From a virus: 64,000 nucleotides of DNA. Of the stretch, positions 38,135 to 57,239 are shown one piece after another (position 1 is the first letter of the stretch; each line of letters opens with the position of its first letter). The stretch is from positions 64,001 through 128,000 of the IMG/VR virus record IMGVR_UViG_3300021399_000004; one strand, 5' to 3'. The position numbers were made by a program, and so were the translations under genes. Below the pieces are notes generated by a model. That model had not been told where the DNA came from. It searched no databases and worked only from the letters and a program-made list of their open reading frames with translations.

Positions 38135-38154
38135 TTAGATGTTCAAACATCTAA
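38135..38154. repeat. 20-bp palindrome TTAGATGT-N4-ACATCTAA, copy 1/38
   Basis: Arms exact, centre TCAA. Precedes a + strand promoter. Confidence 0.95.
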
Positions 38155-38173
38155 CTTAAGGTGAATATAGGTC

Positions 38174-38202
38174 TTGACAAAATCAATGTTTTTTAGTATA
38201 CT
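38174..38202 (+). promoter_or_regulatory. SigA-type promoter
   Basis: TTGACA-17-TATACT, followed by the GTTCC-GAG-GGAAC hairpin. Confidence 0.7.
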
Positions 38203-38244
38203 CTAATTGTTCCGAGGGAACGAAATAAAAACCTGGAGGTAAGG

Positions 38245-38634
38245 TTGAGTATGATGTACATGCTGATTGGTTGGACTGACGGTTTCGGTAACGATGCTTA
38301 CGTGAAGAGCGTCTATCAGACGAGGGAAGAGGCACTCGCGGCGGCGATGCTGGATGATGAGATCCCTGACAAAGTTATTCCGTTTGAGTTTGGAGAAGCG
38401 ATTGATTTTGACTATGATGCGGCGGAAGATCTTGTGGAAAGGAAAGAAGAAATCGACTGGTTGCTTGTGGCTATAAACGCGGTGGATGATGATAAGTTTT
38501 ACTCCTTGCACGAAGAATGGTTTAATACTGGCTGCAATGAAGAAGAGGGAGACGGAGATGACGTTGATAAGTTAATTGCAAATCATAAAGATTGGCTGGA
38601 AGAATACTACAAAGAAAAGGGCGGCAAAATTTAA
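38245..38634 (+). CDS. Highly acidic protein, about 128 aa (DNA-mimic-like composition)
   Basis: SD GGAGG. TTG 38245 or ATG 38251. Asp/Glu-rich throughout. GC hairpin after the stop. Confidence 0.8.
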   Translation: MSMMYMLIGWTDGFGNDAYVKSVYQTREEALAAAMLDDEIPDKVIPFEFGEAIDFDYDAAEDLVERKEEIDWLLVAINAVDDDKFYSLHEEWFNTGCNEEEGDGDDVDKLIANHKDWLEEYYKEKGGKI

Positions 38635-38686
38635 GGGAGGCTATGGCCTCCTGGCCGGCCCGCTTCCAAATAAATTTCTCAAACCT

Positions 38687-38715
38687 CTGACAATCTATCT
38701 CACCTATGTTATAAT
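38687..38715 (+). promoter_or_regulatory. SigA-type promoter
   Basis: CTGACA-17-TATAAT. Confidence 0.6.
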
Positions 38716-38764
38716 GAACATGTTGAAAGCAGAAGGACACTGCTCAAACCGGAAAGGAAAGACT

Positions 38765-38959
38765 ATGGAAAAGAACACTAACTCTCGCAACGGCATCGGT
38801 TTTACTGGCCTGCTTACCATTGCTTTCATTGTGTTGAAGCTGTGCGGCGTGATTACTTGGTCTTGGGTATGGGTTCTGTCTCCGATTTGGATTTCTGTTG
38901 GGATTGCTCTGATTGCTACTGGGCTGCTGGTGATTGTCCATCTTATCCGGAAGCATTGA
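38765..38959 (+). CDS. Two-TM membrane protein, 64 aa
   Basis: SD GGAAAGGAAAG. Internal ATG of track ORF 38576..38959. Confidence 0.75.
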   Translation: MEKNTNSRNGIGFTGLLTIAFIVLKLCGVITWSWVWVLSPIWISVGIALIATGLLVIVHLIRKH

Positions 38960-38974
38960 GCATATGAGTATAAT

Positions 38975-38999
38975 AAAAAAGCCGGTCACCGGCTTTTTA
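38975..38999. terminator. Bidirectional terminator
   Basis: AAAAAGCCGGT-CA-CCGGCTTTTT. Confidence 0.8.
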
Positions 39000-39011
39000 T
39001 TTAGGACGCAT

Positions 39012-39031
39012 TTAGATGTTTAAACATCTAA
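39012..39031. repeat. 20-bp palindrome, copy 2/38
   Basis: Arms exact, centre TTAA. Confidence 0.95.
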
Positions 39032-39075
39032 AATCCTTTATAAAAAAAGTTAGGTTTCCCTAACTTTATAGTTTA

Positions 39076-39330
39076 TTATTTATACAAAAGGCACAGGAAG
39101 TAAACATTGAGGACAACGCTGGAGAGGTGCATGAGCACGTCATTGACGTGCCTGTGCTGCGACAAGTCCTTGCATACACCGAATAGCGCAATCGCAAGGC
39201 CGAACCATGAGACTTGAAGGCCGAAGAGCATAATCAGGACTACATTCAGGATAGTGATTCCGCACCGAAGATCATTCCATTCAAAGCGATACGGCATTGA
39301 AATGCCAAACCAGTTCTTTACTCGCTCCAT
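39076..39330 (-). CDS. Membrane protein, 84 aa
   Basis: Track ORF. ATG overlaps the upstream TAA (TAATG). SD GGAGGA. Confidence 0.8.
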   Translation of the reverse strand: MERVKNWFGISMPYRFEWNDLRCGITILNVVLIMLFGLQVSWFGLAIALFGVCKDLSQHRHVNDVLMHLSSVVLNVYFLCLLYK

Positions 39331-39623
39331 TATTCGTTATCCTCCATCGTGTCCTCGTAGCCGTAAACGTCACCCGCCCAACGGATTTCATCTTCTGCAA
39401 AATCCGTAGGGGCATCGGGATCAACGTCATCCGCGGCAAGCCAGTCTTCCCAAGTGGGGAAGAAGGCGTAGAAATCATCGCACGCTTCAATCGGATCTTC
39501 CATGTGGCACAGATTGCACTGGTCGCAGTAGGGGCAATCGCCATAGGCATTAACAGGGCAGTACACGGGGTCGCCGTTGCGGTAGCCGTCAGTTTCGTAG
39601 TGGTAATCCTTCATCGTGAACAT
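39330..39623 (-). CDS. Acidic Cys-rich protein, 97 aa
   Basis: Internal ATG (MFTMKDY) after GGAAAGGA. Confidence 0.75.
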   Translation of the reverse strand: MFTMKDYHYETDGYRNGDPVYCPVNAYGDCPYCDQCNLCHMEDPIEACDDFYAFFPTWEDWLAADDVDPDAPTDFAEDEIRWAGDVYGYEDTMEDNE

Positions 39624-39663
39624 ATCTGTCAATCCTTTCCGTTCCTCTCTCGGGAACAATGCT

Positions 39664-39692
39664 ATTATAGCATGGAGGTTAGTATTTGTCAA
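39664..39692 (-). promoter_or_regulatory. SigA-type promoter
   Basis: TTGACA-17-TATAAT. Confidence 0.7.
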
Positions 39693-39701
39693 GGGATAGA
39701 A

Positions 39702-39721
39702 TTAGATGTTTAAACATCTAA
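39702..39721. repeat. 20-bp palindrome, copy 3/38
   Basis: Arms exact, centre TTAA. Confidence 0.95.
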
Positions 39722-39758
39722 CCTTGTTTAAGAGAAAAGCCGCCGGGGCGGCGGTATA

Positions 39759-40229
39759 TTAGTCTGTGTTTCGGTCATTAAGGGTAAAAGAAATCTCTGT
39801 CCACCCATCAGAACAATTGCCTAATTCTTTGGTGAAGCCTTCAAGTTCAAACTTATCCATGAGGAAACTTCGCATTTCTCCTCCCCACCAAGCACAATTA
39901 ACTTTCCAAAATCTGCGGTCTTTCAGTTTTAGATATTTCTTTGCAAGTTTAATATTCCAACCAAGGCCGTTGTCATAGAAGTAAAAGGTTTTATTTTCGG
40001 CGTCCCATTCAGAGTTACGAGGAATGTAATAGTTTAGAATTTTAGCCGCACGTTCTTCATTCCAATTCTCTTTGCTGTTAAGCCATACATGAATTTTTTT
40101 AAGCATGAGACTGCCAATCCAAAATGGAAACAGAATTACACGAAGAATCTTGTAACTATTCTTGTTCCACCACTTGCGAATCTTGTGTTCTTTCTTGCCC
40201 CGCATCGCCTTGATAACTTCATTTGTCAT
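39759..40229 (-). CDS. Hypothetical protein with N-terminal TM, 156 aa
   Basis: Track ORF. SD AGAAAGGAAG. GC hairpin at the stop. Confidence 0.85.
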   Translation of the reverse strand: MTNEVIKAMRGKKEHKIRKWWNKNSYKILRVILFPFWIGSLMLKKIHVWLNSKENWNEERAAKILNYYIPRNSEWDAENKTFYFYDNGLGWNIKLAKKYLKLKDRRFWKVNCAWWGGEMRSFLMDKFELEGFTKELGNCSDGWTEISFTLNDRNTD

Positions 40230-40264
40230 AGTGGTTACTTCCTTTCTGTCCTTTGGACAGATTT

Positions 40265-40293
40265 ATTATAGTATAGAATAAAGAGAAAGTCAA
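40265..40293 (-). promoter_or_regulatory. SigA-type promoter
   Basis: TTGACT-17-TATAAT. Confidence 0.7.
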
Positions 40294-40302
40294 GTAGGAA
40301 TA

Positions 40303-40322
40303 TTAGATGTTTAAACATCTAA
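40303..40322. repeat. 20-bp palindrome, copy 4/38
   Basis: Arms exact, centre TTAA. Confidence 0.95.
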
Positions 40323-40364
40323 TGGGCTGGCCAGGTGACGGTATGATCGCCACCTAATACATTT

Positions 40365-40640
40365 TTAGTCTGTTTCCTTCTCATTTCGATGATACAATGT
40401 GTTAATAGTTTTACCTTCAGGAAGAGCGGCCAACCTCTTAATCCGCACATATTGCCAACGGTCATGAAGCAAGATAGCAGATCGGTAATCATAGTAAGTA
40501 GTGATAGTGTCTGTTTTCTGTGAATTGTAGACTAAAACACGTTCATCGTTAGCGAGATATTCATACAGTCCGTTTTCATAATCTACACGACAGAAGTCGG
40601 GTTGATGATAGTACACTTCCTTGCGCTTATGACTTTTCAT
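40365..40640 (-). CDS. Hypothetical protein, 91 aa
   Basis: Track ORF. SD AAGAAAGGGG. Confidence 0.85.
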   Translation of the reverse strand: MKSHKRKEVYYHQPDFCRVDYENGLYEYLANDERVLVYNSQKTDTITTYYDYRSAILLHDRWQYVRIKRLAALPEGKTINTLYHRNEKETD

Positions 40641-40680
40641 ACTTAGTATCCCCTTTCTTGTTCGGAGAGTGTCCTTCTCT

Positions 40681-40770
40681 TTACTTGTTTTTGTTATTCA
40701 TCAGTTGAATGATTGAGCAGACAATGATTGCGACTTGACAGATGACGATGATGACGGTTCTGGTGGTCAT
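40681..40770 (-). CDS. Hydrophobic peptide, 29 aa
   Basis: SD AGAAAGGAAC. ATG to TAA. First ORF after promoter 40812..40840. Confidence 0.5.
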   Translation of the reverse strand: MTTRTVIIVICQVAIIVCSIIQLMNNKNK

Positions 40771-40811
40771 AGTGGCGTTCCTTTCTGTTTCTCTCTTTCA
40801 GGAACAACTGT

Positions 40812-40840
40812 ATTATAGCATAGGTTGTGGCGATTGTCAA
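40812..40840 (-). promoter_or_regulatory. SigA-type promoter
   Basis: TTGACA-17-TATAAT. Confidence 0.7.
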
Positions 40841-40849
40841 GAGTTTTTT

Positions 40850-41005
40850 TCAAACTGCGCGCCATTCTCCTGTATTTGCGTCTTTAATAAATTCAACCGC
40901 AGGAATATAAATGTAGTTATCTTCGATGATTTCATATTCGGGGAAAGCATTGGGATTGGTTTCAAGAGTGTTATTGATGAAGGTGATGATTTCTTCGCGC
41001 GTCAT
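40850..41005 (-). CDS. Hypothetical protein, 51 aa
   Basis: Conserved leader plus SD AGAAAGGGG. ATG to TGA. Below the track cutoff. Confidence 0.65.
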   Translation of the reverse strand: MTREEIITFINNTLETNPNAFPEYEIIEDNYIYIPAVEFIKDANTGEWRAV

Positions 41006-41053
41006 TTGGTTCCCCTTTCTGGTTTATGGTGTTTTCCTTCACCTTTCAATGAT

Positions 41054-41082
41054 AGTATATCATAAGATACATTTTTTGTCAA
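41054..41082 (-). promoter_or_regulatory. SigA-type promoter
   Basis: TTGACA-17-TATACT. Confidence 0.7.
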
Positions 41083-41119
41083 GGGGTTTTGAAAATTTTT
41101 TGGCGGGCCGGTCTGTAGG

Positions 41120-41139
41120 TTAGATGTTCAAACATCTAA
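41120..41139. repeat. 20-bp palindrome, copy 5/38
   Basis: Arms exact, centre TCAA. Confidence 0.95.
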
Positions 41140-41187
41140 ATTGGTTCCGGTTAAGCGTGTCTAACTCTTGCATAAAAGAAAAGCCCC

Positions 41188-42308: not shown

Positions 42309-42328
42309 TTAGATGTTCAAACATCTAA
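42309..42328. repeat. 20-bp palindrome, copy 6/38 (between divergent promoters)
   Basis: Arms exact, centre TCAA. Confidence 0.95.
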
Positions 42329-42357
42329 AAATGTTGAAGGAAAATTAAAAATATGGA

Positions 42358-42385
42358 TTGACTTTTTTATAAAGTCGAGTATAAT
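42358..42385 (+). promoter_or_regulatory. SigA-type promoter
   Basis: TTGACT-16-TATAAT. Confidence 0.65.
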
Positions 42386-42411
42386 ATAATTGTACCAAGA
42401 GAAAGGAGCCA

Positions 42412-42921
42412 ATGAAGATGACTGATTACAAGCAGGAAGCCCGTAAATTTTTGAAAGAATTTTCTCCTGCGTTAGAAAACTATAATGGTTCACTGACGTA
42501 TATGTGGCAGAAAGCCAAAGAATATAATAAAGGTAGAACGAAAATAAATCAAATTGTTTGTAGAAATGGTGCTACTCGGATAGCTCTTATCGGCAAGGAT
42601 TTTGTTGTAAAGATGGATTATGATGCTGATGATGATATAAAAATGTTTGGTGGATGCGGGAAAGAATACGCTTTGTATAGAAAATGTGTTCGTGAAAATT
42701 CGCCTTATTTGCATTGTTTATTGGAAATTGCTAAAATTAAAGTAGGCAATCATTTCTATTACATCATGCCAAAAGCAAACTATTGCGGGCATACTTCCTT
42801 CTTAAATTTCAATTGTGAAGAAAGAAACTGGCTGTATAGTCATGTAAATGATTTACATAATGGAAATATTGGAAAATATAACGGTAAACCTGTGGTTATT
42901 GATTATGCCTGTCAGTTCTGA
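42412..42921 (+). CDS. Hypothetical protein, 169 aa, with kinase-like DLHNGN...VIDYA motif
   Basis: Track ORF. SD GAAAGGAG. Hairpin GCCTGTCAG-TT-CTGACAGGC at the stop. Confidence 0.8.
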   Translation: MKMTDYKQEARKFLKEFSPALENYNGSLTYMWQKAKEYNKGRTKINQIVCRNGATRIALIGKDFVVKMDYDADDDIKMFGGCGKEYALYRKCVRENSPYLHCLLEIAKIKVGNHFYYIMPKANYCGHTSFLNFNCEERNWLYSHVNDLHNGNIGKYNGKPVVIDYACQF

Positions 42922-42944
42922 CAGGCATTTTCATTATTTGTAGA

Positions 42945-42964
42945 TTAGATGTTTGAACATCTAA
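42945..42964. repeat. 20-bp palindrome, copy 7/38
   Basis: Arms exact, centre TTGA. Confidence 0.95.
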
Positions 42965-43007: not shown

Positions 43008-43340
43008 TTAGCCCTTCACCGTGTAGGTGTTGGGCTTGCCCTCGGTCTTGACAAGCTCGTCAGCCCACAGGCGGGTAATGGCGTACTGCACATTGCCACG
43101 GGTTACGCCGGTGGGCAGGTCATTCTGGCAAGCCTCGTAAACCTCGCTAACCGTCAGCGACACAGGAGTGGACTTGAACACGTTGAACACAATGTCCTTC
43201 ATAGTCGTATACATGTCGGACTTGGCAGCCTTGACCTCGGCGCCACGGTTCAGCTCCTTGTCAACGGCGGCAAGCAGCTCGGTCTGATCGGGCATGGTAG
43301 ACAGGATGTTGCGGATAGCAGTCAGAGAAGCCTTCGTCAT
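43008..43340 (-). CDS. wHTH-like protein, paralog family member 1 of 3, 110 aa
   Basis: Track ORF, alignable with 46723..47061 and 49632..49976 (LT..E.Y......LP.G.T.G...Y..TR.W.DE). Confidence 0.85.
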   Translation of the reverse strand: MTKASLTAIRNILSTMPDQTELLAAVDKELNRGAEVKAAKSDMYTTMKDIVFNVFKSTPVSLTVSEVYEACQNDLPTGVTRGNVQYAITRLWADELVKTEGKPNTYTVKG

Positions 43341-43439: not shown

Positions 43440-43512
43440 GAGTTTGGAAACTTTTTTTGAGTTTCAACTACGACCTTGCAACGGTGGTGTGGCTTGGAGT
43501 TCCCTCCTGACA
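43440..43512 (-). ncRNA. Candidate short non-coding transcript or long leader from an orphan promoter
   Basis: Promoter 43519..43547 has no ORF before the next promoter. Its 5' end AAATACTGTCAGGAGGGAA is shared with the unit at 47145..47249. Contains hairpin GAAACT-N7-AGTTTC. Confidence 0.3.
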
Positions 43513-43566: not shown

Positions 43567-43586
43567 TTAGATGTTTAAACATCTAA
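43567..43586. repeat. 20-bp palindrome, copy 8/38
   Basis: Arms exact, centre TTAA. Confidence 0.95.
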
Positions 43587-44108: not shown

Positions 44109-44128
44109 TTAGATGTTTGAACATCTAA
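44109..44128. repeat. 20-bp palindrome, copy 9/38
   Basis: Arms exact, centre TTGA. Confidence 0.95.
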
Positions 44129-44508: not shown

Positions 44509-44528
44509 TTAGATGTTTGAACATCTAA
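44509..44528. repeat. 20-bp palindrome, copy 10/38
   Basis: Arms exact, centre TTGA. Confidence 0.95.
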
Positions 44529-44547: not shown

Positions 44548-44940
44548 TTACACCGCCACCTCACGGTCGAGATACTGGTTAGGGTCGTCCTTCTCTTCTT
44601 CTTCCTGAGCCTTGGCGGCCTTGGCGGCCCGGCGGGCCTTGTCAGCGGCAATCTTAGCCGCCTTTTCCTTAGCCTTGGCTTCGGCCTTCGCCGCCTTGGC
44701 GGCCTTTTCCTCTTTCCACGCTTCAGCCTCCACAAAGGGGTCAAACACACCGCCCTTGGCAGTCTCGGTGAAGGACTTGGACTTAACCGTGATCTCAGTC
44801 CAAACCTCCTGACCGTCTACCTCCTGCAACACGGCGAACGAGGCATCACCAAACTGCACAGCGGCAAGCTGTTCCAGAACGTCATGCAGGGCAGTCAGGG
44901 TCATGGCACGAGCGGCGGACTTGGCTTCCAGAATCTTCAT
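44548..44940 (-). CDS. Protein with Lys/Ala-rich histone-H1-like C-terminal tail, 130 aa (paralog of 48920..49285)
   Basis: SD AGAAAGGG 8 nt before ATG (MKILEAK). Tail sequence EEKAAKAAKAEAKAKEKAAKIAADKARRAAKAAKA. Confidence 0.8.
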   Translation of the reverse strand: MKILEAKSAARAMTLTALHDVLEQLAAVQFGDASFAVLQEVDGQEVWTEITVKSKSFTETAKGGVFDPFVEAEAWKEEKAAKAAKAEAKAKEKAAKIAADKARRAAKAAKAQEEEEKDDPNQYLDREVAV

Positions 44941-45041: not shown

Positions 45042-45061
45042 TTAGATGTTTGAACATCTAA
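45042..45061. repeat. 20-bp palindrome, copy 11/38
   Basis: Arms exact, centre TTGA. Confidence 0.95.
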
Positions 45062-45093
45062 TTTAGGTTTTAGGTAAAAGCCCTTGCGGGCTT

Positions 45094-46146
45094 TTACTTA
45101 ATAAATTCTTCAAGATGATTTTGATATTCAATAGCAAATTGCTTCTGGGCCGGGTCGGTCACGTCAGCATTGAAACGAGTAAGATACTGGATAATTTTGC
45201 CTTTGTGCGAAACTTCACATGTAATGCAGGGGGTATCTGGGGCAGAAATTTTCCGTACAGTAACAATGTAAGTTTCGTTATGAAATACTTTCGACATATA
45301 GAGATCTTCTACACAATTCTCTTGCGCCTTTGCTTCAATATGAAATGCTTCTTTGTTAAGAATTGGGCGCGCTTCATAATCCCGATATTGGAAGTAGAGG
45401 AATGGCTTGTCATTATTTTTAGTTAAAATAGAATCATAATTTTCTTGCTTATAAATTTTATAAAGATAGACCATTTTAGCATAAGCGGTTAAGAAATTAT
45501 GCGGCACTTTCACTTCATTATACATCATTATACTCATTTTATAATAGTTAATAATCAATTCTTCAAATTTAGGCTGGGCATAATATACATATGGATTATC
45601 ATCAATATTAGCAGAGAATGAATCAACATTTTCAAGAATCATTCGTTGTAGTATGGAGATAACGTAAGTACCGGGGATTTCTTGATGATGATATGCGATA
45701 GAACGAGCAATCTTTTTTGCCCAGTCGGGAAATCTTTCATGAGCAGGATAATTTTTAGAAAAGTTATAGGCGGCGACGGCGTTATCGCTATACATGCCAT
45801 TATAGTTATCTTTGATAAAGCTAACAAGCTCTTTAGTCAGACGGGAAGAGGAATCTAAAGCACTAAAACTTTCCGGAACTAATCCAACGGATATAAGCTG
45901 TTCAAGCCTGTTTGCTCTTGCTCGGGTGTACTTTTCTTTATAAGTTGATTCGTTCATTCTATACATATAGATAACACGAGCAAAAATATTATTACATGTA
46001 AGATTATTATAAGTAAATACTTGTGGAATGGTCTTAACAGGTTTATTAGACTTGCCGATGAAATTTCCAGTAGTGATATGCCACTTGCCCATCATCTCAT
46101 TCGCATGATATGCTACAATGTAATCTTTCTCTTTGATGAACTCCAT
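45094..46146 (-). CDS. Hypothetical protein, 350 aa (PcfJ-like C-terminal region, tentative)
   Basis: Track ORF and the largest cassette gene. Terminator AAAGCCC-TTGC-GGGCTTT. Confidence 0.8.
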   Translation of the reverse strand: MEFIKEKDYIVAYHANEMMGKWHITTGNFIGKSNKPVKTIPQVFTYNNLTCNNIFARVIYMYRMNESTYKEKYTRARANRLEQLISVGLVPESFSALDSSSRLTKELVSFIKDNYNGMYSDNAVAAYNFSKNYPAHERFPDWAKKIARSIAYHHQEIPGTYVISILQRMILENVDSFSANIDDNPYVYYAQPKFEELIINYYKMSIMMYNEVKVPHNFLTAYAKMVYLYKIYKQENYDSILTKNNDKPFLYFQYRDYEARPILNKEAFHIEAKAQENCVEDLYMSKVFHNETYIVTVRKISAPDTPCITCEVSHKGKIIQYLTRFNADVTDPAQKQFAIEYQNHLEEFIK

Positions 46147-46194
46147 GCCGGCAACCTTTCTGGTTTGAGGTGTTTTCCTTCACCTTTCGAGAGT

Positions 46195-46241: not shown

Positions 46242-46261
46242 TTAGATGTTCAAACATCTAA
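46242..46261. repeat. 20-bp palindrome, copy 12/38
   Basis: Arms exact, centre TCAA. Confidence 0.95.
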
Positions 46262-46660: not shown

Positions 46661-46680
46661 TTAGATGTTTTAACATCTAA
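46661..46680. repeat. 20-bp palindrome, copy 13/38
   Basis: Arms exact, centre TTTA. Confidence 0.95.
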
Positions 46681-46722: not shown

Positions 46723-47061
46723 TTACGCCCTGCGGTAGCAGTTGACGCCCTTGACGCCCTCAACCTTGACGATGGCGTCACCCCACAGGCGGGTCAGACC
46801 ATAGCTGACCTTGCCCTTGGTAAAGCCCTCGGGGAGCTTGTCAGCGCACTCGTCATAGATCTCAGCGGCAGTCAGCGGGGCAGTGGTCATCGCAAGGACT
46901 TCCAGCACAGCGGCCTTCGCTTCGTCATAGGCGGACTTGCGCTCAGCCTTGGCGGCTTCGCCACGGTGCAGTTCGGCGTTGAGTTCGTCCATGATGGCGG
47001 TATCAGAGTAGCCAGTCTCGGTCAGGTAAGCAACAACAGCGGACAGAGTAGCCTTCTTCAT
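46723..47061 (-). CDS. wHTH-like protein, paralog 2 of 3, 112 aa
   Basis: Track ORF. SD AGAAGGAG. Confidence 0.85.
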   Translation of the reverse strand: MKKATLSAVVAYLTETGYSDTAIMDELNAELHRGEAAKAERKSAYDEAKAAVLEVLAMTTAPLTAAEIYDECADKLPEGFTKGKVSYGLTRLWGDAIVKVEGVKGVNCYRRA

Positions 47062-47144: not shown

Positions 47145-47249
47145 GGAAGTTTTAAGTTTCGCAAACTTTTTTTTAGCACTTTGCGAAGGTAGAATTTTTA
47201 AGGCGCGGTGTCAAGGTGCTCGCTTGTCTTGTGCCCTTCCCTCCTGACA
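47145..47249 (-). ncRNA. Candidate short non-coding transcript or long leader from an orphan promoter
   Basis: No ORF between promoter 47256..47284 and the next promoter. 5' end shared with 43440..43512. Contains hairpin TTCGCAAA-N13-TTTGCGAA. Confidence 0.3.
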
Positions 47250-47292: not shown

Positions 47293-47312
47293 TTAGATGT
47301 TTAAACATCTAA
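47293..47312. repeat. 20-bp palindrome, copy 14/38
   Basis: Arms exact, centre TTAA. Confidence 0.95.
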
Positions 47313-47841: not shown

Positions 47842-47861
47842 TTAGATGTTAAAACATCTAT
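47842..47861. repeat. 20-bp palindrome, copy 15/38 (last base changed)
   Basis: TTAGATGT-TAAA-ACATCTAT. Confidence 0.9.
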
Positions 47862-48297: not shown

Positions 48298-48317
48298 TTA
48301 GATGTTCAAACATCTAA
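48298..48317. repeat. 20-bp palindrome, copy 16/38
   Basis: Arms exact, centre TCAA. Confidence 0.95.
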
Positions 48318-48866: not shown

Positions 48867-48886
48867 TTAGATGTTTGAACATCTAA
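48867..48886. repeat. 20-bp palindrome, copy 17/38
   Basis: Arms exact, centre TTGA. Confidence 0.95.
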
Positions 48887-48919: not shown

Positions 48920-49285
48920 TTACTGAGTATTTTCCTTCAACTTCTGCTTGGCAGCACGCTTGGCATTGTCGGCCGCAATTTTCGCCGCTTTCTTGGCGTC
49001 GGCTGCCGCCTTCTTCGCCTTCTTCTCTTCCATGTCAAGGCGGTACTCTTCGGCGGCGGCGTAGGCATCGTACTCAATGTAACCGCCCTGTCCGTCACGA
49101 GTACCACGGGGGATAGATACCTTGACAAGTGCAAACTTCTCATTCTGTGCGCTGTCAAGTACGGGGATGGCGATTTCGTTTCCGCTAACGTCAATAGCGT
49201 CTACGTCAAAGTGGGCGGCAAGCGCCTGGCGGATCACGTCAAGAACCTCATTGCGGATGGGGGTGTTCAGTTCTTCCTTGCTCAT
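48920..49285 (-). CDS. Protein with Lys/Ala-rich H1-like tail, 121 aa (paralog of 44548..44940)
   Basis: Tail sequence EEKKAKKAAADAKKAAKIAADNAKRAAKQK. Confidence 0.85.
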   Translation of the reverse strand: MSKEELNTPIRNEVLDVIRQALAAHFDVDAIDVSGNEIAIPVLDSAQNEKFALVKVSIPRGTRDGQGGYIEYDAYAAAEEYRLDMEEKKAKKAAADAKKAAKIAADNAKRAAKQKLKENTQ

Positions 49286-49330
49286 ACGTTACTCCTTTTG
49301 GTTTAGAGTTTTCCTTCTCTCATCGTGTAC

Positions 49331-49569: not shown

Positions 49570-49589
49570 TTAGATGTTTAAACATCTAA
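49570..49589. repeat. 20-bp palindrome, copy 18/38
   Basis: Arms exact, centre TTAA. Confidence 0.95.
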
Positions 49590-49631: not shown

Positions 49632-49976
49632 TTACGCCTTGCGGCTATACAGGGTGGCGCCCTTGCTACCCTTGTCCGCAATCAGTTCGTCTACCCAATA
49701 GCGGGTCATGGCGTACTGCATCTTGCCCTTGGTGAAACCATCGGGCAGCTGGTCAGCAATGCTCTCATACAGCTCACTGACCGTTACGGGGCCAACAGCA
49801 TCCGCAAGACCATTCATCACGACATCATGCGCCTCAGCGTACAGCTCGCGATTCGCCTGCGCCTTGACGGCGTTCTTGTTCAGCTCAGCCTCCAGCTCAG
49901 CCTTGATTTCATCGAGGTTGGTCACAGTCTCGCCGTTGAGGTAGGAAACGAGGGACATCATGGTGGACTTCTTCAT
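49632..49976 (-). CDS. wHTH-like protein, paralog 3 of 3, 114 aa
   Basis: Internal ATG (MKKSTMM) after the conserved leader and SD AAAGGAG. Confidence 0.85.
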   Translation of the reverse strand: MKKSTMMSLVSYLNGETVTNLDEIKAELEAELNKNAVKAQANRELYAEAHDVVMNGLADAVGPVTVSELYESIADQLPDGFTKGKMQYAMTRYWVDELIADKGSKGATLYSRKA

Positions 49977-50096: not shown

Positions 50097-50116
50097 TTAG
50101 ATGTTTAAACATCTAA
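50097..50116. repeat. 20-bp palindrome, copy 19/38
   Basis: Arms exact, centre TTAA. Confidence 0.95.
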
Positions 50117-50140: not shown

Positions 50141-50902
50141 TTAGCCCTCCGCCGTAGTAAATGAATATGTATCATTCTTTACATACTTTTTAATATATCG
50201 TCCTTTGATAACCTGTACTCCGTCAATTTTAATTGTGAAGGGTTTAATCTGTTGCCGTTTCAAAATCTTTTTTACTTCATAATCATGATTCCATTCTGCG
50301 CCACGTTTGATACATTCAAGCAAAATATTGCTTTCAATTTGTGCATCATACAGGCCCATGTGCTTTTCTATAAAATCATATTTGCTTTGGATATATTGAT
50401 ATACAGATTCAGCGCTGCCGCTATAATTGCCCGTATCTGTAAAGCGCTGATTTACTTCACAAAATTGCTTGTACTCGTCTGTATTTGTGATAAAAGCGCT
50501 TGCATAGCCCCAAATATCATGAATGGCTACCGTATCAAAAGGATTCATTGTTCTGAACCAATCACAATTATAGGTTAAGACTTTATCATCGAAAGTTGAG
50601 TTATAGGCATATGCATCAGTGATATTAAATGCTTTAATATCTCGTCTGATAGCTTGCATGATATAGCCCCACTTGTCCATGATCGCCAGCTTGCTTCTCA
50701 TTAGCGTGATATAGTCGGGGCGCTTGTCTTTATAATAGGCGCTTTCAAAAAGAGGGAGATTGTGCCAGACCTGTTCTACAATGTAATGCGCCTGCTTGAC
50801 CAGCTCATTCGATTCAGTATTGATTATTACATAACCAATATCATAGCAGAAGCATTTTTCGAGGCCGGTTGTCTCCGTGTCAAATACCATGATGAATCCC
50901 AT
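50141..50902 (-). CDS. DEDDh (DnaQ-like) 3'-5' exonuclease, 253 aa
   Basis: Motifs VFDTETT, AYNSTFDD and HMGLYDAQIE. Paralog of 41188..42198. Confidence 0.85.
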   Translation of the reverse strand: MGFIMVFDTETTGLEKCFCYDIGYVIINTESNELVKQAHYIVEQVWHNLPLFESAYYKDKRPDYITLMRSKLAIMDKWGYIMQAIRRDIKAFNITDAYAYNSTFDDKVLTYNCDWFRTMNPFDTVAIHDIWGYASAFITNTDEYKQFCEVNQRFTDTGNYSGSAESVYQYIQSKYDFIEKHMGLYDAQIESNILLECIKRGAEWNHDYEVKKILKRQQIKPFTIKIDGVQVIKGRYIKKYVKNDTYSFTTAEG

Positions 50903-50992: not shown

Positions 50993-51012
50993 TTAGATGT
51001 TTAAACATCTAA
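50993..51012. repeat. 20-bp palindrome, copy 20/38
   Basis: Arms exact, centre TTAA. Confidence 0.95.
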
Positions 51013-51388: not shown

Positions 51389-51408
51389 TTAGATGTTCAA
51401 ACATCTAA
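51389..51408. repeat. 20-bp palindrome, copy 21/38
   Basis: Arms exact, centre TCAA. Confidence 0.95.
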
Positions 51409-51780: not shown

Positions 51781-51800
51781 TTAGATGTTTGAACATCTAA
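51781..51800. repeat. 20-bp palindrome, copy 22/38
   Basis: Arms exact, centre TTGA. Confidence 0.95.
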
Positions 51801-52220: not shown

Positions 52221-52240
52221 TTAGATGTTCAAACATCTAA
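52221..52240. repeat. 20-bp palindrome, copy 23/38
   Basis: Arms exact, centre TCAA. Confidence 0.95.
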
Positions 52241-52645: not shown

Positions 52646-52665
52646 TTAGATGTTCAAACATCTAA
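52646..52665. repeat. 20-bp palindrome, copy 24/38
   Basis: Arms exact, centre TCAA. Confidence 0.95.
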
Positions 52666-52950: not shown

Positions 52951-52970
52951 TTAGATGTTTGAACATCTAA
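52951..52970. repeat. 20-bp palindrome, copy 25/38
   Basis: Arms exact, centre TTGA. Confidence 0.95.
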
Positions 52971-53456: not shown

Positions 53457-53476
53457 TTAGATGTTTAAACATCTAA
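53457..53476. repeat. 20-bp palindrome, copy 26/38
   Basis: Arms exact, centre TTAA. Confidence 0.95.
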
Positions 53477-53508
53477 CATAAGGAAGGCCCTAACAGGGCC
53501 GTAGATAA

Positions 53509-53700: not shown

Positions 53701-53731
53701 AATCAATGCCTCCTTTTCTTGGAACGATTAT

Positions 53732-53760: not shown

Positions 53761-53777
53761 TAGGAAAATAAAAAAGA

Positions 53778-53797
53778 TTAGATGTTGAAACATCTAA
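53778..53797. repeat. 20-bp palindrome, copy 27/38
   Basis: Arms exact, centre TGAA. Confidence 0.95.
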
Positions 53798-53824
53798 CCC
53801 TGGAGAGAAAAAAGGTAAACCGCC

Positions 53825-53980: not shown

Positions 53981-54018
53981 GTTGATTCCTTCCTTTCTGT
54001 TCCCTTTGGAACGATTAC

Positions 54019-54047
54019 ATTATAGCATACTTGTGAAGAAAAATCAA
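54019..54047 (-). promoter_or_regulatory. SigA-type promoter
   Basis: TTGATT-17-TATAAT. Confidence 0.6.
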
Positions 54048-54065
54048 GTGGTTTGCACTATTTCA

Positions 54066-54085
54066 TTAGATGTTGAAACATCTAA
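54066..54085. repeat. 20-bp palindrome, copy 28/38
   Basis: Arms exact, centre TGAA. Confidence 0.95.
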
Positions 54086-54110
54086 CCTTGGTGGAGGATG
54101 GGCGGGCCGA

Positions 54111-54272
54111 TTAGCCCGCCATTTCCTTAACCCACGCCGCGGCGTCCTTCCAATTATCAAAGCTAAGCCGTCCAAAATCATAGTTGAATACTACCCATGT
54201 GCTATGCGAATCAAGGTCATCATAGTAATAGCCCATCTTTTCCATCCGTGCAATGATAGTCCGCTTTGCCAT
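54111..54272 (-). CDS. Hypothetical protein, 53 aa
   Basis: SD AAAGGAG. Hairpin GGCGGGC-N6-GCCCGCC spans the stop. Confidence 0.7.
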   Translation of the reverse strand: MAKRTIIARMEKMGYYYDDLDSHSTWVVFNYDFGRLSFDNWKDAAAWVKEMAG

Positions 54273-54310
54273 CGTACATTCTCCTTTCTTTATCCCCTTG
54301 GGACAATATC

Positions 54311-54339
54311 ATTATATAGGATTTTAGTATGTTTGTCAA
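54311..54339 (-). promoter_or_regulatory. SigA-type promoter
   Basis: TTGACA-17-TATAAT. Confidence 0.7.
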
Positions 54340-54378
54340 TAGGCATTGTAAAAAAATTAATAGAAAATAAAATTAAGA

Positions 54379-54398
54379 TTAGATGTTTAAACATCTAA
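54379..54398. repeat. 20-bp palindrome, copy 29/38
   Basis: Arms exact, centre TTAA. Confidence 0.95.
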
Positions 54399-54426
54399 CC
54401 TTCAATTGTTAAAGTGTCTCCCGCGA

Positions 54427-54591
54427 TTAAGCGGGAGCGGAAAGAACGAAGTAATCCCAATCATGGCCCAGCTCGGTGCCCCGGTTAACGTACTGCTTGC
54501 CGGTGTTTTCAGCTTCTTCATTGGTGGAGAACTTACCAATCAAGTAGAAGCTATACTTGCTAACGATGTACAATCTGTAAATGGTGTCCAT
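54427..54591 (-). CDS. Hypothetical protein, 54 aa (paralog of 53825..53980)
   Basis: SD GGAAAGGAAGGA. Hairpin CTCCCGC-N6-GCGGGAG at the stop. Confidence 0.7.
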   Translation of the reverse strand: MDTIYRLYIVSKYSFYLIGKFSTNEEAENTGKQYVNRGTELGHDWDYFVLSAPA

Positions 54592-54629
54592 ATGTTTTCC
54601 TTCCTTTCCGTTCCTCTTGGAACGTCTAT

Positions 54630-54658
54630 ATTATAGCATACTCGCAATTACTTGTCAA
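54630..54658 (-). promoter_or_regulatory. SigA-type promoter
   Basis: TTGACA-17-TATAAT. Confidence 0.7.
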
Positions 54659-54676
54659 CGTGTTTATGAAAATGAA

Positions 54677-54696
54677 TTAGATGTTCAAACATCTAA
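54677..54696. repeat. 20-bp palindrome, copy 30/38
   Basis: Arms exact, centre TCAA. Confidence 0.95.
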
Positions 54697-54707
54697 CTCT
54701 TGGAGGC

Positions 54708-54851
54708 TCACGCCTCCTCTTCTACCCGTTCAAAGTTATCACGGCAGAACGATTCATAGGAATCATACCACTTAGAGAAATATTTATACTGCTCATACAT
54801 TTCTTCTTCCGTAATGTATCTTTCCATTTCCCAATCATACCATTTAGCCAT
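54708..54851 (-). CDS. Hypothetical acidic protein, 47 aa
   Basis: SD AAAGGAGGAAAAG. Hairpin GGAGGC-TCAC-GCCTCC at the stop. Confidence 0.65.
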   Translation of the reverse strand: MAKWYDWEMERYITEEEMYEQYKYFSKWYDSYESFCRDNFERVEEEA

Positions 54852-54893
54852 TTTCTTTTCCTCCTTTTTTGTTCGTTCCTTTGGAACAGTTAT

Positions 54894-54922
54894 ATTATAT
54901 CATGGTAGGATAGTCCTGTCAA
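54894..54922 (-). promoter_or_regulatory. SigA-type promoter
   Basis: TTGACA-17-TATAAT. Confidence 0.7.
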
Positions 54923-54940
54923 CAGAGTGAGAAAAATAAA

Positions 54941-54960
54941 TTAGATGTTCAAACATCTAA
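54941..54960. repeat. 20-bp palindrome, copy 31/38
   Basis: Arms exact, centre TCAA. Confidence 0.95.
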
Positions 54961-54976
54961 CAACGTTGGTGGGCCG

Positions 54977-55102
54977 TTAGGCCCACCGCATCAATTCATC
55001 AAATTCCTCAAAAGTCATGGGGTCGTCCTCATCAGTATTCGCCTGATACTCCCAGAACAGATAGATCTGCTCCGCGTCGGTCAGTTCATCCCAATTAATC
55101 AT
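54977..55102 (-). CDS. Hypothetical acidic protein, 41 aa
   Basis: SD GAAGGAG. Hairpin GGTGGGCC-GTTA-GGCCCACC at the stop. Confidence 0.6.
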   Translation of the reverse strand: MINWDELTDAEQIYLFWEYQANTDEDDPMTFEEFDELMRWA

Positions 55103-55149
55103 TTTTGTTTTCTCCTTCGTTTCTTTATTTTGTCCCTCCGGACAAGTAT

Positions 55150-55178
55150 AGTATACTGTATGTTCAATAAAAAGTCAA
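55150..55178 (-). promoter_or_regulatory. SigA-type promoter
   Basis: TTGACT-17-TATACT. Confidence 0.7.
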
Positions 55179-55196
55179 CATGAATTTTTCAGAGGA

Positions 55197-55216
55197 TTAG
55201 ATGTTTAAACATCTAA
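55197..55216. repeat. 20-bp palindrome, copy 32/38
   Basis: Arms exact, centre TTAA. Confidence 0.95.
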
Positions 55217-55331
55217 CTTTTGAAAAAAACGATGATAAGTTTCTTTGCTATTTTTTTACCGATAAGTCATGCGGAAGAAATAGCAGAAAGTACTGCCTGA
55301 TTTGATAGAAAAGTCATCACATTCAAATCTA

Positions 55332-55499
55332 TTAAATAATTATTCTAGCTTGTCGGTGTCCAGCTGGCGCCCAGCTGGTGTCCAGCTGGCTGGCCCGTAG
55401 GGCGCGAGTTGCGCCGCGGCGAGCCTCAAAAAATTTATAGGTAACTATGATAAACAGATCTTCTTGATTCTCTTTTTTAGGTGGTAGTTGGAGAGACAT
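55332..55499 (-). CDS. Questionable ORF, 55 aa, containing the CAGCTG repeat block
   Basis: SD GGAGGGG and ATG to TAA. The GC-rich repeat inside it may be a DNA or RNA element rather than coding sequence. Confidence 0.3.
   Translation of the reverse strand: MSLQLPPKKENQEDLFIIVTYKFFEARRGATRALRASQLDTSWAPAGHRQARIII
55361..55388. repeat. Three CAGCTG cores phased at exactly 11 bp (GTCCAGCTGG-like units)
   Basis: Cores at 55361-66, 55372-77 and 55383-88. Confidence 0.85.
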
Positions 55500-55517
55500 T
55501 GCCCCTCCAATGATGAT

Positions 55518-55546
55518 AGTATACTACATTACACGTTCATTGTCAA
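55518..55546 (-). promoter_or_regulatory. SigA-type promoter
   Basis: TTGACA-17-TATACT. Confidence 0.7.
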
Positions 55547-55564
55547 TCATGATAGCGTGGATAA

Positions 55565-55584
55565 TTAGATGTTCAAACATCTAA
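55565..55584. repeat. 20-bp palindrome, copy 33/38
   Basis: Arms exact, centre TCAA. Confidence 0.95.
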
Positions 55585-55602
55585 CTACCATGGGCATCCG
55601 GA

Positions 55603-55622
55603 CATCTAACTACTGTTAGATG
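55603..55622. repeat. Everted half-site pair CATCTAAC-TACT-GTTAGATG
   Basis: The same half-sites as the 20-bp palindrome, in swapped order. Confidence 0.8.
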
Positions 55623-55653
55623 CGAAAAAAGGGGGGGCTTGCGCCCCTCCTTT

Positions 55654-55965
55654 TTACTTCATTGTTTTGAACCAGTAGTTTTCATTGGTGTTCCAGTAGT
55701 GCAGGCGGCACAGTCGGCTGTTCCAGCTCTTAACAATAGCGTCCGGCGGGCAATCCGTCAAGTGGCGGCTCAGCCCTTCACCGCAGGCAATCTCAACCTT
55801 GAGATAGAACCCTTCGGCGGTCTTACCCTCCCGCGTGATCTTTACCATGGGAGTGGCGCCGCGCCCGCCCTTCAAGTAGTAGTGGCGCGCGGTCTTTTCC
55901 AGCAGGCGAACCATGGTCAGCAGGTTGAAGTAGTCGGGAGCGAAGACGGCGATCAGAATCATCAT
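55654..55965 (-). CDS. Hypothetical protein, 103 aa (paralog of 59744..60055)
   Basis: SD GGAGGTG before the internal ATG. The C-terminus HYWNTNENYWFKT matches HAWNTNDDYWYET. Confidence 0.8.
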   Translation of the reverse strand: MMILIAVFAPDYFNLLTMVRLLEKTARHYYLKGGRGATPMVKITREGKTAEGFYLKVEIACGEGLSRHLTDCPPDAIVKSWNSRLCRLHYWNTNENYWFKTMK

Positions 55966-56011
55966 GATGGACACCTCCAAATTTTTTTCTGTTCCCCCTT
56001 GGAACAATTGT

Positions 56012-56040
56012 ATTATAGCATACATCATTCATCCTGTCAA
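56012..56040 (-). promoter_or_regulatory. SigA-type promoter
   Basis: TTGACA-17-TATAAT. Confidence 0.7.
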
Positions 56041-56069
56041 CCCCTATTTTACATCTAAAAATGCATTAG

Positions 56070-56089
56070 TTAGATGTTGAAACATCTAA
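56070..56089. repeat. 20-bp palindrome, copy 34/38
   Basis: Arms exact, centre TGAA. Confidence 0.95.
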
Positions 56090-56428
56090 TTACTGTTTAA
56101 GGATTTAACTAATATTTAAACATCTAACTAATATTTAAACATTTAAGAATAAAATTCATCGCTGGAAGAGTTGATTAAAAACTGTAAAATAAAGTCAAGC
56201 GCGCAAAAATTATAATAGTTAAGTTCGTCAAATAAGGTCTTAATTTCACTTATTATGGCACAGATTTTAAAATAGAATGCGATGGCTACTGGTAGATAGG
56301 TGTAATAAAAAGATTTCCTTGATAATATATTTTTCTAACTGTGGGTGCTATCTTGGAAATGATATTATATTATAGTTTACAATTATTGTTAATTGAGTTT
56401 TGGGAAAATTAAATATGTTAAGATTAGA

Positions 56429-56448
56429 TTAGATGTCTAAACATCTAA
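56429..56448. repeat. 20-bp palindrome, copy 35/38
   Basis: Arms exact, centre CTAA. Confidence 0.95.
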
Positions 56449-56690
56449 CATGAAATAGTTAAATGTTGTAAAATTTTATATTAGTTGAGGGGGAAATGAA
56501 TGATATTTAAAATTAATAAAATATTATATAGATATGGGAATTGATTATTTGAAAATTTTTATTCCAAATAAAATAGCATTGAAAATGAAATATGCCCAGC
56601 TCGCATATAATTATAAAAATAATATTTTTTCTTCGGTCGATGCAAGCAGTTGGCGATAACAAAATATAATAATAAATGATAATAATAATT

Positions 56691-56719
56691 ATTATACCAC
56701 ATTTTGGGATAAAAGTCAA
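56691..56719 (-). promoter_or_regulatory. SigA-type promoter without a downstream gene
   Basis: TTGACT-17-TATAAT. Confidence 0.55.
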
Positions 56720-56727
56720 GAGACTAA

Positions 56728-56747
56728 TTAGATGTTAAAACATCTAA
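56728..56747. repeat. 20-bp palindrome, copy 36/38
   Basis: Arms exact, centre TAAA. Confidence 0.95.
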
Positions 56748-56926
56748 CTTGAAAATGAAATTGTAGGATTTTAAATTAGGAATTTTTATAATTTTATTTG
56801 AATAATAATTTAAAATAAAATTATGTTATTTTGCCAGCTCGCATTATTATGTTTATAGGAAAACATTCTTCGTTAATAATATTAAGTATCTGATATGAAA
56901 AGAAAATAAAATTAAAGATATTATTT

Positions 56927-56955
56927 ATTATACCACGTTTCAGGAAAAAAGTCAA
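56927..56955 (-). promoter_or_regulatory. SigA-type promoter without a downstream gene
   Basis: TTGACT-17-TATAAT. Confidence 0.55.
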
Positions 56956-56963
56956 GTCTTAAA

Positions 56964-56983
56964 TTAGATGTTTAAACATCTAA
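56964..56983. repeat. 20-bp palindrome, copy 37/38
   Basis: Arms exact, centre TTAA. Confidence 0.95.
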
Positions 56984-57182
56984 CTTGGAAATGAAATAAG
57001 ACTGTTATGGGAGAAAATTTTTTATATATTCAACTTATATATTTTGTCTATTTAAAAATAAAATAATAATGTAATTAAAATAATACGAGCTTCAGCTTGC
57101 ATATCATTTCGGGTTTTACTCTTGCTTTCGTGGATCAATGATAACATTTGAAAACTAAATTGAAATCAAAAAGTAATTATCT

Positions 57183-57211
57183 ATTATACCATATTTTGGG
57201 AAAAAAGTCAA
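57183..57211 (-). promoter_or_regulatory. SigA-type promoter without a downstream gene
   Basis: TTGACT-17-TATAAT. Confidence 0.55.
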
Positions 57212-57219
57212 CCTTAAAA

Positions 57220-57239
57220 TTAGATGTTCAAACATCTAA
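57220..57239. repeat. 20-bp palindrome, copy 38/38
   Basis: Arms exact, centre TCAA. Confidence 0.95.

Follow-up and report, generated by a model that had tools for sequence, protein, structure and literature searches.

A 64,000-nt stretch of the virus record IMGVR_UViG_3300021399_000004 (positions 64,001 to 128,000 of that record; hereafter the window) contains, from 38135 to 57239, an array of about 40 small-gene units, mostly on the − strand, which is punctuated by 38 copies of a 20-bp palindrome, TTAGATGT-N4-ACATCTAA. In a pattern search of the window, 37 copies matched exactly and one, at 47842, carried a single mismatch; all of them lie within the array, no copy with two mismatches was found, and shuffled sequence gave 0.00 exact matches and 0.44 matches at up to three mismatches. 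Four further matches with three mismatches occur in the window, of which the one at 5769 is likely due to chance, those at 57263 and 58447 are built on an isolated half-site, and that at 58375 falls within a (TATATG)n repeat. The arms extend to 9 bp, TTAGATGTT-NN-AACATCTAA, in 37 of the 38 copies, and the four central bases read TTAA (12 copies), TCAA (12), TTGA (7), TGAA (3), TAAA (2), TTTA (1) or CTAA (1). A first-pass annotation, made from the letters alone, had reported the same copy number, the restriction to 38.1-57.2 kb, the same centre counts, and arms that are identical save for the last base of the copy at 47842, and our search agrees with it on each of these points for this genome.

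All 38 palindromes are intergenic, and sequence conservation ends at their edges. The first-pass annotation had proposed extending the search beyond the window, and no copy was found in the 6.8 kb to its right (L161) or the 6 kb to its left (L165) in the same genome; the window and these 12.8 kb of flanks make up ~77 kb of a 129,144-bp ENA metagenome scaffold. As a repeat, the exact 20-mer is otherwise absent from IMG/VR, the JGI metagenomes and 185,579 bacterial genomes (GTDB), and the motif matches in these collections are essentially single chance matches or lie on short phage-like contigs. No Rfam family matched anywhere in the window.

The junctions between units share a common order of parts. 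Read along the transcribed strand, a junction begins with the stop codon, followed by a GC-rich hairpin that differs from unit to unit and carries a T-run, then by a few bases and the palindrome. After the palindrome come 7-39 nt of A/T-rich sequence, a TTGACA-17-TATAAT promoter, usually with an extended −10 (TGnTATAAT), a small hairpin at the start of the transcript, a ribosome-binding site (RBS) and a small open reading frame (ORF). The array promoters are predicted Bacillota-style sigma-A promoters, near consensus, and a promoter of the TTGACA-17-TATAAT type stands beside 36 of the 38 palindromes. The first-pass annotation had placed every copy between a terminator and a −35, which describes most of them and fails for the copies at 39012 and 42945, located at convergent gene ends without a promoter.

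The distance from the palindrome to the −35, previously taken to be loose at 9-28 nt, is in fact quantised, with gaps of 7-9 nt (nine sites), 17-19 nt (20 sites), 28-30 nt (five sites) and 36-39 nt (three sites) and none between. With the copy at 56429 left out for its doubtful promoter, the remaining 36 gaps gave a Rayleigh R of 0.89 (p~3e-13), the period being 10.3-10.5 bp. Restriction to whole helical turns, the mark of class I and phi29 p4-type upstream sites, is therefore what the array displays, and the palindrome centre would lie at about −54, −64, −75 or −84 if the start site is assumed to be 7 nt past the −10 hexamer. Since the gaps are selected for whole helical turns, whatever occupies the palindrome must face the promoter complex. 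The phasing ties the palindrome to transcription initiation at the DNA level, and the global early-gene operator proposed in the first-pass annotation gains from a palindrome that is phase-locked to sigma-A-type promoters. Near-consensus promoters without a palindrome exist both outside the array (26003, 29744, 33129, 35737, 36334) and within it (40840, 43437, 47142), so that the palindrome marks a regulon and not promoters generally. Two of the three inside the array are second promoters (P2) of the winged-helix genes g82 and g90.

The array recurs throughout the family, with a site code specific to the genome. The exonuclease-like protein encoded at 50141-50902, used as a query, retrieved 23 related IMG/VR loci (44-67% protein identity) from contigs of up to 181 kb, and a palindrome array was present in all 23, with up to 39 copies in 20 kb. 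Nine of these loci carry TTAGATGT-N3-ACATCTAA and nine carry TTAGGTGT-N3-ACACCTAA, and single loci have TTAGGTGG-N3-CCACCTAA (L154), TTACTGTA-N3-TACAGTAA (L138) and TTAGACGA-N3-TCGTCTAA (L158); mixed half-sites occur in L148 (TTAGATGT/TTAGGTGT) and L157 (TTAGATGT/TTGGATGT). The arm types (ATGT, GGTGT, GGTGG, CTGTA, GACGA) are fixed per genome and differ across genomes, and the earlier statement that the arms do not drift holds within this genome but not for the family, where they vary. The centre is N3 in every relative and N4 in the lineage of the window only. In the relatives the gap between palindrome and −35 is 8-10 nt at 314 of ~400 scored sites, being 9 nt in most of them, and the two loci with the most divergent palindromes have 10-11 nt ladders of their own (13, 23-25 and 33 nt in L138; 20-22, 30-33 and 42-44 nt in L158).

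Four short contigs with two to six N3 palindromes (L176, L183, L190, L199) are binned in metagenome-assembled genomes (MAGs) of Acutalibacteraceae, Oscillospiraceae and Bacillota, which hints at the host group or at mis-binned phage DNA; no prophage context was found on the MAG contigs with multiple copies of the motif, and no evidence of lysogeny. Separately, an unrelated GC-rich contig (L068, JAAUYK010173138.1) carries TTTAGATGTTTAAACATCTAAA twice in a 113-bp direct repeat at 524-656, immediately following genes for a ParA-like and a small ribbon-helix-helix-like protein. This looks like a plasmid partition site that shares the sequence by chance, and we set this plasmid-type contig aside as a coincidence.

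Units are gained, lost and replaced with their junctions at the palindrome. In a variant 99.1-99.6% identical to the window (L061), positions 45063-46154 are replaced by an unrelated 122-amino-acid acidic ORF (L061 11764-12158). The exchangeable cassette, on the − strand, comprises the RBS-proximal leader, a 350-amino-acid PcfJ-like ORF and the terminator; divergence begins just past the RBS and leader module and ends at the base before the palindrome at 45042-45061. Because the PcfJ-like gene is replaced in this variant, it is dispensable and part of an exchangeable cargo. Among 12 pairs of relatives, which share some events that are thus not fully independent, we found 35 clean whole-unit indels, 31 of which have flanks that share an overlap of 21-125 nt with a palindrome inside it. 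The starts of homology blocks cluster at the palindrome's upstream edge, and the block ends spread over the promoter and leader. The link to cassette exchange that the first-pass annotation had suggested is upheld by both the indel junctions and the L061 swap.

The two + strand units, at 38155-39011 and 42329-42944, are bounded by palindromes on both sides, with the promoter by the left copy and the terminator by the right one in the first and the same layout in the second. Each has an orphan palindrome at its convergent end and a promoter-adjacent copy at the other, and the layout recurs in relatives; it is what inversion between two palindromes would be expected to leave, and the cassettes were probably inverted. 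The palindrome is the only ~20-bp sequence that is perfectly repeated in every unit and for that reason is also where recombination joins units; since the shared stretches frequently continue into the promoter, homologous recombination of the ordinary kind between the repeated linkers suffices. Cassette turnover at the palindrome is a demonstrated pattern, which we read as a by-product of one perfect 20-bp repeat per unit.

Along the array, the copies fall into the gap classes as follows, with promoters on the − strand unless stated. The shortest class begins with two TTAA copies at gap 9 (39702-39721, 40303-40322) and continues with the TTAA copy at 47293-47312 (gap 8), which serves the first promoter (P1) of g90, the TCAA copy at 48298-48317 and the TTAA copy at 49570-49589 (both gap 7), and the TTGA copy at 52951-52970 (gap 8). 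It also includes three copies at gap 8 near the right end, at 56728-56747 (TAAA, followed by an AT-rich stretch without an ORF), 56964-56983 (TTAA) and 57220-57239 (TCAA), the last two heading units without an ORF and the latter forming the right boundary of the array.

The class of 17-19 nt opens with the left boundary of the array, a TCAA copy at 38135-38154 whose promoter is on the + strand, 19 nt to its right. Gap 19 is also found for the TTAA copy at 43567-43586, which serves P1 of g82, for the TTGA copies at 45042-45061 (its edge being the 3' breakpoint of the L061 swap), 48867-48886 and 51781-51800, for the TTAA copy at 50097-50116 and for the TCAA copy at 52646-52665. Gap 18 occurs at 44509-44528 (TTGA), 46242-46261 (TCAA), 46661-46680 (TTTA, with a TTGATT −35), 53457-53476 (TTAA), 54066-54085 (TGAA, again with TTGATT), 54677-54696 (TCAA), 54941-54960 (TCAA), 55197-55216 (TTAA) and 55565-55584 (TCAA), and gap 17 at 47842-47861 (TAAA, the sole imperfect copy, its last base being T), 50993-51012 (TTAA), 52221-52240 (TCAA) and 53778-53797 (TGAA).

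Longer gaps are less common. The TCAA copy at 42309-42328 is common to two divergent promoters, at gap 29 on the + strand and gap 30 on the − strand; the first-pass annotation had recognised the former, which is present, and had missed the latter. The remaining members of this class are 44109-44128 (TTGA, gap 28), 51389-51408 (TCAA, gap 29) and 56070-56089 (TGAA, gap 29), the last of which adjoins a direct-repeat run of half-sites. The longest gaps belong to 41120-41139 (TCAA, gap 37), 54379-54398 (TTAA, gap 39) and 56429-56448 (CTAA, gap ~36), where the − strand promoter is weaker and doubtful (TTAACA) and no ORF lies downstream. The two orphans, 39012-39031 (TTAA) and 42945-42964 (TTGA), are located between convergent gene ends, with a promoter on neither side.

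Half-sites (ACATCTAA) also stand in isolation, eleven in all and ten with the same orientation, and are confined to 55.6-59.1 kb (55602-59127, + strand), in line with the extent given in the first-pass annotation. Some follow one another as direct repeats, at 56080-56146 with period 19 and at 57254-57295 with period 20, where same-orientation repeats of the half-site (AAACATCTAAC) adjoin full palindromes at the AT-rich end of the array. Half-sites that stand alone or as same-orientation direct repeats fit a protein subunit that reads one half-site, and the two runs look like a nucleation or boundary site of the same predicted protein. The surrounding region, 56100-59100, has ~20% GC and includes three or four palindrome-promoter units without an ORF (56429-57239), which may yield small non-coding transcripts sharing a GCGAGCTGG-like core. 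Beyond them are many AAATGAAAT repeats, a (TATATG)n microsatellite at 58143-58509 and an (ATA)n run, and the region could be a replication origin, a genome end, or a decoy or small-RNA region.

Further elements recur around the promoters and leaders. An inverted repeat, AGTTT-N2-5-AAACT, has only three copies in the window (40842-40856, 43441-43452, 47155-47167), each just upstream of the −35 of one of the in-array promoters without a palindrome, and it is possibly a second operator class. Hairpins just past the −10, for example at 54620-54635, 54870-54885 and 53715-53730, have the forms GTTCC-N3-5-GGAAC, GTCC...GGAC and GTACC...GGTAC; because their stems covary between units, structure and not sequence is conserved there, and they are likely 5' mRNA stabilisers. 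A leader module, GAAGGAAAAC-N5-6-AAACCAGAAAGG, lies ~8 nt before the start codon in at least eight units (− strand sites at 49317, 48245, 47097, 46181, 44977, 43375, 42236 and 41040), with flanking bases that form a covarying stem around the GAAGGAAAAC loop, and may be a translation-control element.

The wider genome points to an unusual phage. When TAG is read as sense, fragmented + strand ORFs at 1-24400, 36367-37788 and 61106-63335 join into long proteins of up to 2109 amino acids, including tail-fibre-like proteins, a lysin and a helicase-like protein, and the stops of the array genes are TAA in 29 cases, TGA in eight and TAG in one. This fits a code-15 phage in which late and some other genes are recoded and the early array genes use the standard code, and the window yielded no tRNA gene. 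Genes matching Pfam YonG_N, YonD_N and YonB lie just right of the array (L161 1-9650) in the order seen in SPbeta, which makes the clade, by gene content and order, a putative very distant, TAG-recoded relative of SPbeta-like phages. No DNA similarity to known phages was detected, and a tblastx comparison with SPbeta gave no match. The nearest isolates are Enterococcus phages (~140 kb) and phAss-1, at ~28-31% identity in one protein; the phAss-1 genome has no palindrome array, and the phAss-1 paper mentions none.

Proteins that might bind the palindrome were sought among the families conserved near the array, namely the exonuclease-like protein, a HAD-like protein, the g87/g94 family with its lysine/alanine-rich tail, and the winged-helix family g82/g90/g96, and none could be named as the binder. 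The winged-helix genes, all on the − strand (g82, 43008-43340; g90, 46723-47061; g96, 49632-49976), are low-confidence candidates, of which g82 has a P1 with a palindrome and a P2 without one, and g90 likewise has tandem promoters P1 and P2. The model of this family reached a predicted local distance difference test (pLDDT) score of 90.9, and its best fold matches were the DNA-binding domains of Fur, Zur and PerR, regulators that read 7-1-7 to 9-1-9 inverted repeats. On the strength of the modelled fold the family is a reasonable candidate, but it was not retained as the binder, its recognition helix showing no covariation with site type. The g87/g94 family is restricted to the clade, is present in 24 of 24 loci with one to three paralogs per genome (in the window, 44548-44940 and 48920-49285) and combines an alpha/beta domain with a long lysine/alanine/glutamate-rich helix (AlphaFold pLDDT 92.7); it was set aside after giving no PDB fold or sequence match and no Pfam match, its homologues all being unnamed phage proteins. 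A small HTH_3 protein, g58 (30700-30909), was discarded for having no homologue in the related contigs. No integrase-type Pfam match appeared among 20 proteins scanned, nor any recombinase.

Taken together, we consider it probable that the palindrome is the operator of one dimeric regulator, itself probably phage-encoded, which would sit on the polymerase face of the DNA, and that the same repeat doubles as the crossover point of the cassettes. Each half-site (TTAGATGTT) would be read by one subunit of a two-fold symmetric protein, and the bound protein would lie on the same DNA face as RNA polymerase, touching either polymerase or the upstream DNA wrapping it, such that a single switch sets ~36 independent early transcription units together. 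The regulator might hold or block polymerase from its upstream position, in the way that p4 of phi29 acts at A2c, a strong promoter. Because the core promoters are near consensus, we infer that a coordinated shut-off or throttle of the early set is more likely than activation. The palindromes also carry the junctions at which whole promoter-ORF-terminator cassettes come and go, are swapped and are probably inverted.

Several observations weigh against this proposal. With its centre at −54 or further upstream, the site is off the core promoter, so repression cannot come from simple occlusion, and the site geometry would suit activation just as well. The perfect orphans at 39012 and 42945 are not explained by a purely promoter-linked role, unless the inversions are recent, and the N4 centre of all 38 copies needs either a changed protein geometry or a homogenising process. 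The search among conserved array-proximal families named no binder, and the winged-helix family, which was not found in three of 24 loci, has recognition helices that do not follow the palindrome type, the same helix occurring with both ATGT and GGTGT sites.

The palindrome could instead act through nucleic-acid structure, as a DNA cruciform, a back-up terminator hairpin in RNA or an RNA processing signal, and the first-pass annotation had kept a transcript-processing site or accessory terminator among its options. A perfect inverted repeat just after each terminator is what such a role would show, the changes between genomes affect both arms, and a loop would tolerate a step from N3 to N4. 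In four relatives, however, the arms are non-complementary at 30-60% of sites, which are hybrids of two different half-sites (L148, 11/37, with ATGT and GGTGT arms; L157, 14/23; L145, 5/14; L152, 5/13), and many sites of L156 keep just the outer 6 bp on one side. Since the arms vary independently in relatives, complementarity is not required and base pairing is not what is conserved. Within this genome, the palindrome sequence is fixed although any complementary pair would do, whereas the adjacent terminator and 5' untranslated region hairpins covary freely. The single-strand hairpin is weak (−4.6 kcal/mol) with an AT-rich stem, no T-run follows it in the downstream flanks, and the palindrome thus lacks the stable GC-rich hairpin and U-run of an intrinsic terminator, which are instead found in the true terminator that precedes it. 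Being downstream of an efficient-looking terminator, the palindrome is mostly untranscribed, and structure would leave the phasing to the −35 unexplained. The hybrid sites, the weak hairpin, the missing T-run and the preceding terminator led us to reject the hairpin, terminator and RNA-processing readings, and a structural role of any kind is highly improbable. The data fit a two-fold symmetric protein that reads each half-site, and here the preference of the first-pass annotation for a dimeric protein over a plain hairpin was well placed. Such a protein might, however, act as a roadblock or insulator against read-through from the upstream unit and not regulate initiation. The palindrome does lie between a terminator and the next promoter, the orphan copies are between convergent units, where read-through collisions would occur, and mycobacteriophage stoperators, which are many repressor sites that block elongation, offer a precedent. 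Yet a fixed helical phase to the −35 would be of no use to a roadblock, and the site of the relatives, 9 nt from the −35, is where polymerase itself contacts upstream DNA, which makes this very unlikely.

The binder might also come from the host, for instance a global regulator or nucleoid protein of a Clostridia-type bacterium, in which case the palindrome would tie phage transcription to host physiology or titrate the factor. No phage binder was found, the 9-1-9 or 9-2-9 inverted-repeat architecture is that of Fur-family and similar host regulators, to which the fold of g82/g90/g96 also leads, and multi-copy matches to the motif turned up in the Acutalibacteraceae, Oscillospiraceae and Bacillota MAGs; against this, closely related phages from similar rumen-type samples differ in their half-sites, some being mixed, which suggests a fast-evolving, phage-private partner, and ~185,000 bacterial genomes show no host regulon with this box, so that a host protein seems rather unlikely. 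We rate as unlikely, too, that the palindrome is primarily the site of a dedicated recombinase or nuclease in an integron-like platform, to which its link with promoters would be secondary. The indel, replacement and inversion-type junctions do fall on it, its short variable centre between fixed arms resembles a crossover site, the lineage-specific N4 in all 38 copies suggests homogenisation, and MrpR of SPbeta, which binds an analogous element, has a tyrosine-recombinase fold (PMC10516654). But helical phasing to the −35 would serve no purpose in recombination, the breakpoints on the 5' side are diffuse and lie in the promoter or leader, and overlaps of up to 125 nt into the promoter are what homologous recombination between linkers gives, as at the PeSLs of T4-type phages (PMC2839356). 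Neither a recombinase among the proteins scanned nor tblastx similarity to SPbeta was found, and the half-sites drift in some genomes. A reading that joins both roles, in which the early-promoter regulator would be, as the fold of MrpR hints, a recombinase-derived or still active DNA-synapsing enzyme that pairs palindromes and excises, inserts or inverts units, is quite unlikely; if it were true, the array would be a self-expressing 'integron' of anti-host genes, in which the genome-specific site code limits exchange to compatible phages.

The closest analogue of the proposed operator is found in SPbeta, in which the master repressor MrpR/YopR binds a palindromic element, SPBRE, present in the regions of ~10 early promoters (PMC10516654). 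There, too, a short palindrome is repeated at many early promoters of a large Bacillota phage, SPbeta-type YonB, YonD and YonG genes are next to the array here, and the element ends 7 nt upstream of the −35 in aimR and yonX of SPbeta. We re-derived SPBRE from the SPbeta record as approximately ACAAATACAAAwAATATGTAT, a consensus without resemblance to TTAGATGTT-NN-AACATCTAA. Its ~10 copies compare with 38 here, and their positions vary, often over the core promoter or leader, whereas the palindromes at promoters here are always upstream and phase-locked. A tblastx comparison of 100 kb of SPbeta with the window and its right flank (L161) returned no match, and no homologue of MrpR was detected in it or among the 20 proteins scanned.

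For cassette turnover, the nearest parallel is the PeSL of T4-type phages, in which modules that pair an early promoter with a stem-loop terminator flank small genes and carry the breakpoints of indels and replacements, proposed to arise by homologous recombination between the repeated modules (PMC2839356, PMC4122927). The PeSL analogy drawn in the first-pass annotation holds for architecture and breakpoints, given that in both systems a strong host-type early promoter with an upstream terminator stands between small orphan genes of a hyperplastic region and breakpoints between relatives fall in the repeated modules, here at 31 of 35 indels and the L061 swap. Unlike in PeSLs, where the conserved stem-loop is the terminator, the array has a separate, weakly folding palindrome beside unit-specific terminators; no helical phasing or genome-specific operator code has been described for PeSLs, whose hosts are Gram-negative, whereas the promoters here are of the Bacillota type. 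The accompanying analogy with integron attC sites did not survive. In attC sites, ~57-141 bp long, the palindrome is imperfect and has extrahelical bases and paired R/L boxes, and integron cassettes are promoterless and read from one Pc promoter beside intI and attI. The palindrome described here is a perfect 20-bp element whose conservation ends at its edges, every unit brings a promoter and terminator of its own, and no integrase was seen among the proteins scanned.

Upstream sites of comparable geometry are known from other systems. CRP acts as a class I activator from sites at −61.5, −72.5 and −82.5, and work on A2c/A3 of phi29 showed that the polymerase contact made by p4 represses at a strong promoter. 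In these systems a dimeric protein occupies the inverted repeat, and its function requires whole helical turns. The array resembles them in that its inverted repeats lie upstream of the −35 and face polymerase at whole helical turns, with binding being predicted here, and differs from phi29 in that the few sites of one control region are replaced by ~38 independent units. Arrays of tens of near-identical repressor sites in intergenic gaps are likewise known from the stoperators of cluster A mycobacteriophages (L5 gp71) and the C1 operators dispersed over phage P1, which resemble the present case in their many intergenic copies with a genome-specific consensus. Those sites are asymmetric, and stoperators lie in transcribed regions and act in an orientation-dependent manner, whereas the palindromes are symmetric, occur with both orientations of the centre (TCAA 12, TTGA 7), lie upstream of promoters and are confined to one 19-kb array.

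Global phage operators and promoter-terminator modules for gene shuffling are already known, and the array is not a new principle. What goes beyond the first-pass annotation is the helical quantisation, the family-wide set of genome-specific variants and the recognition of SPBRE/MrpR as the closest analogue. The element is real, strongly non-random and family-wide, and its interest lies in its scale, its phase ladder and its co-evolving site code. The phages that carry it are uncultured, have genomes of 130-180 kb, come from gut and rumen samples and recode TAG, and almost none of their early genes has a known function. In this setting, the palindrome provides an exact marker of an early regulon dependent on the host polymerase, with ~36 promoters here and several hundred in the clade, and a defined junction for the turnover of small anti-host genes. 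With the binder in hand, the phasing at 36 natural promoters would offer unusually rich data on how an upstream factor communicates with a Gram-positive RNA polymerase. With at least five site variants, a 1-bp change in spacing and genomes with hybrid sites that are apparently mid-transition, the family constitutes a natural experiment on the co-evolution of an operator and its protein, and identification of the binder would let a single protein-DNA pair account for when an entire class of genes is expressed.

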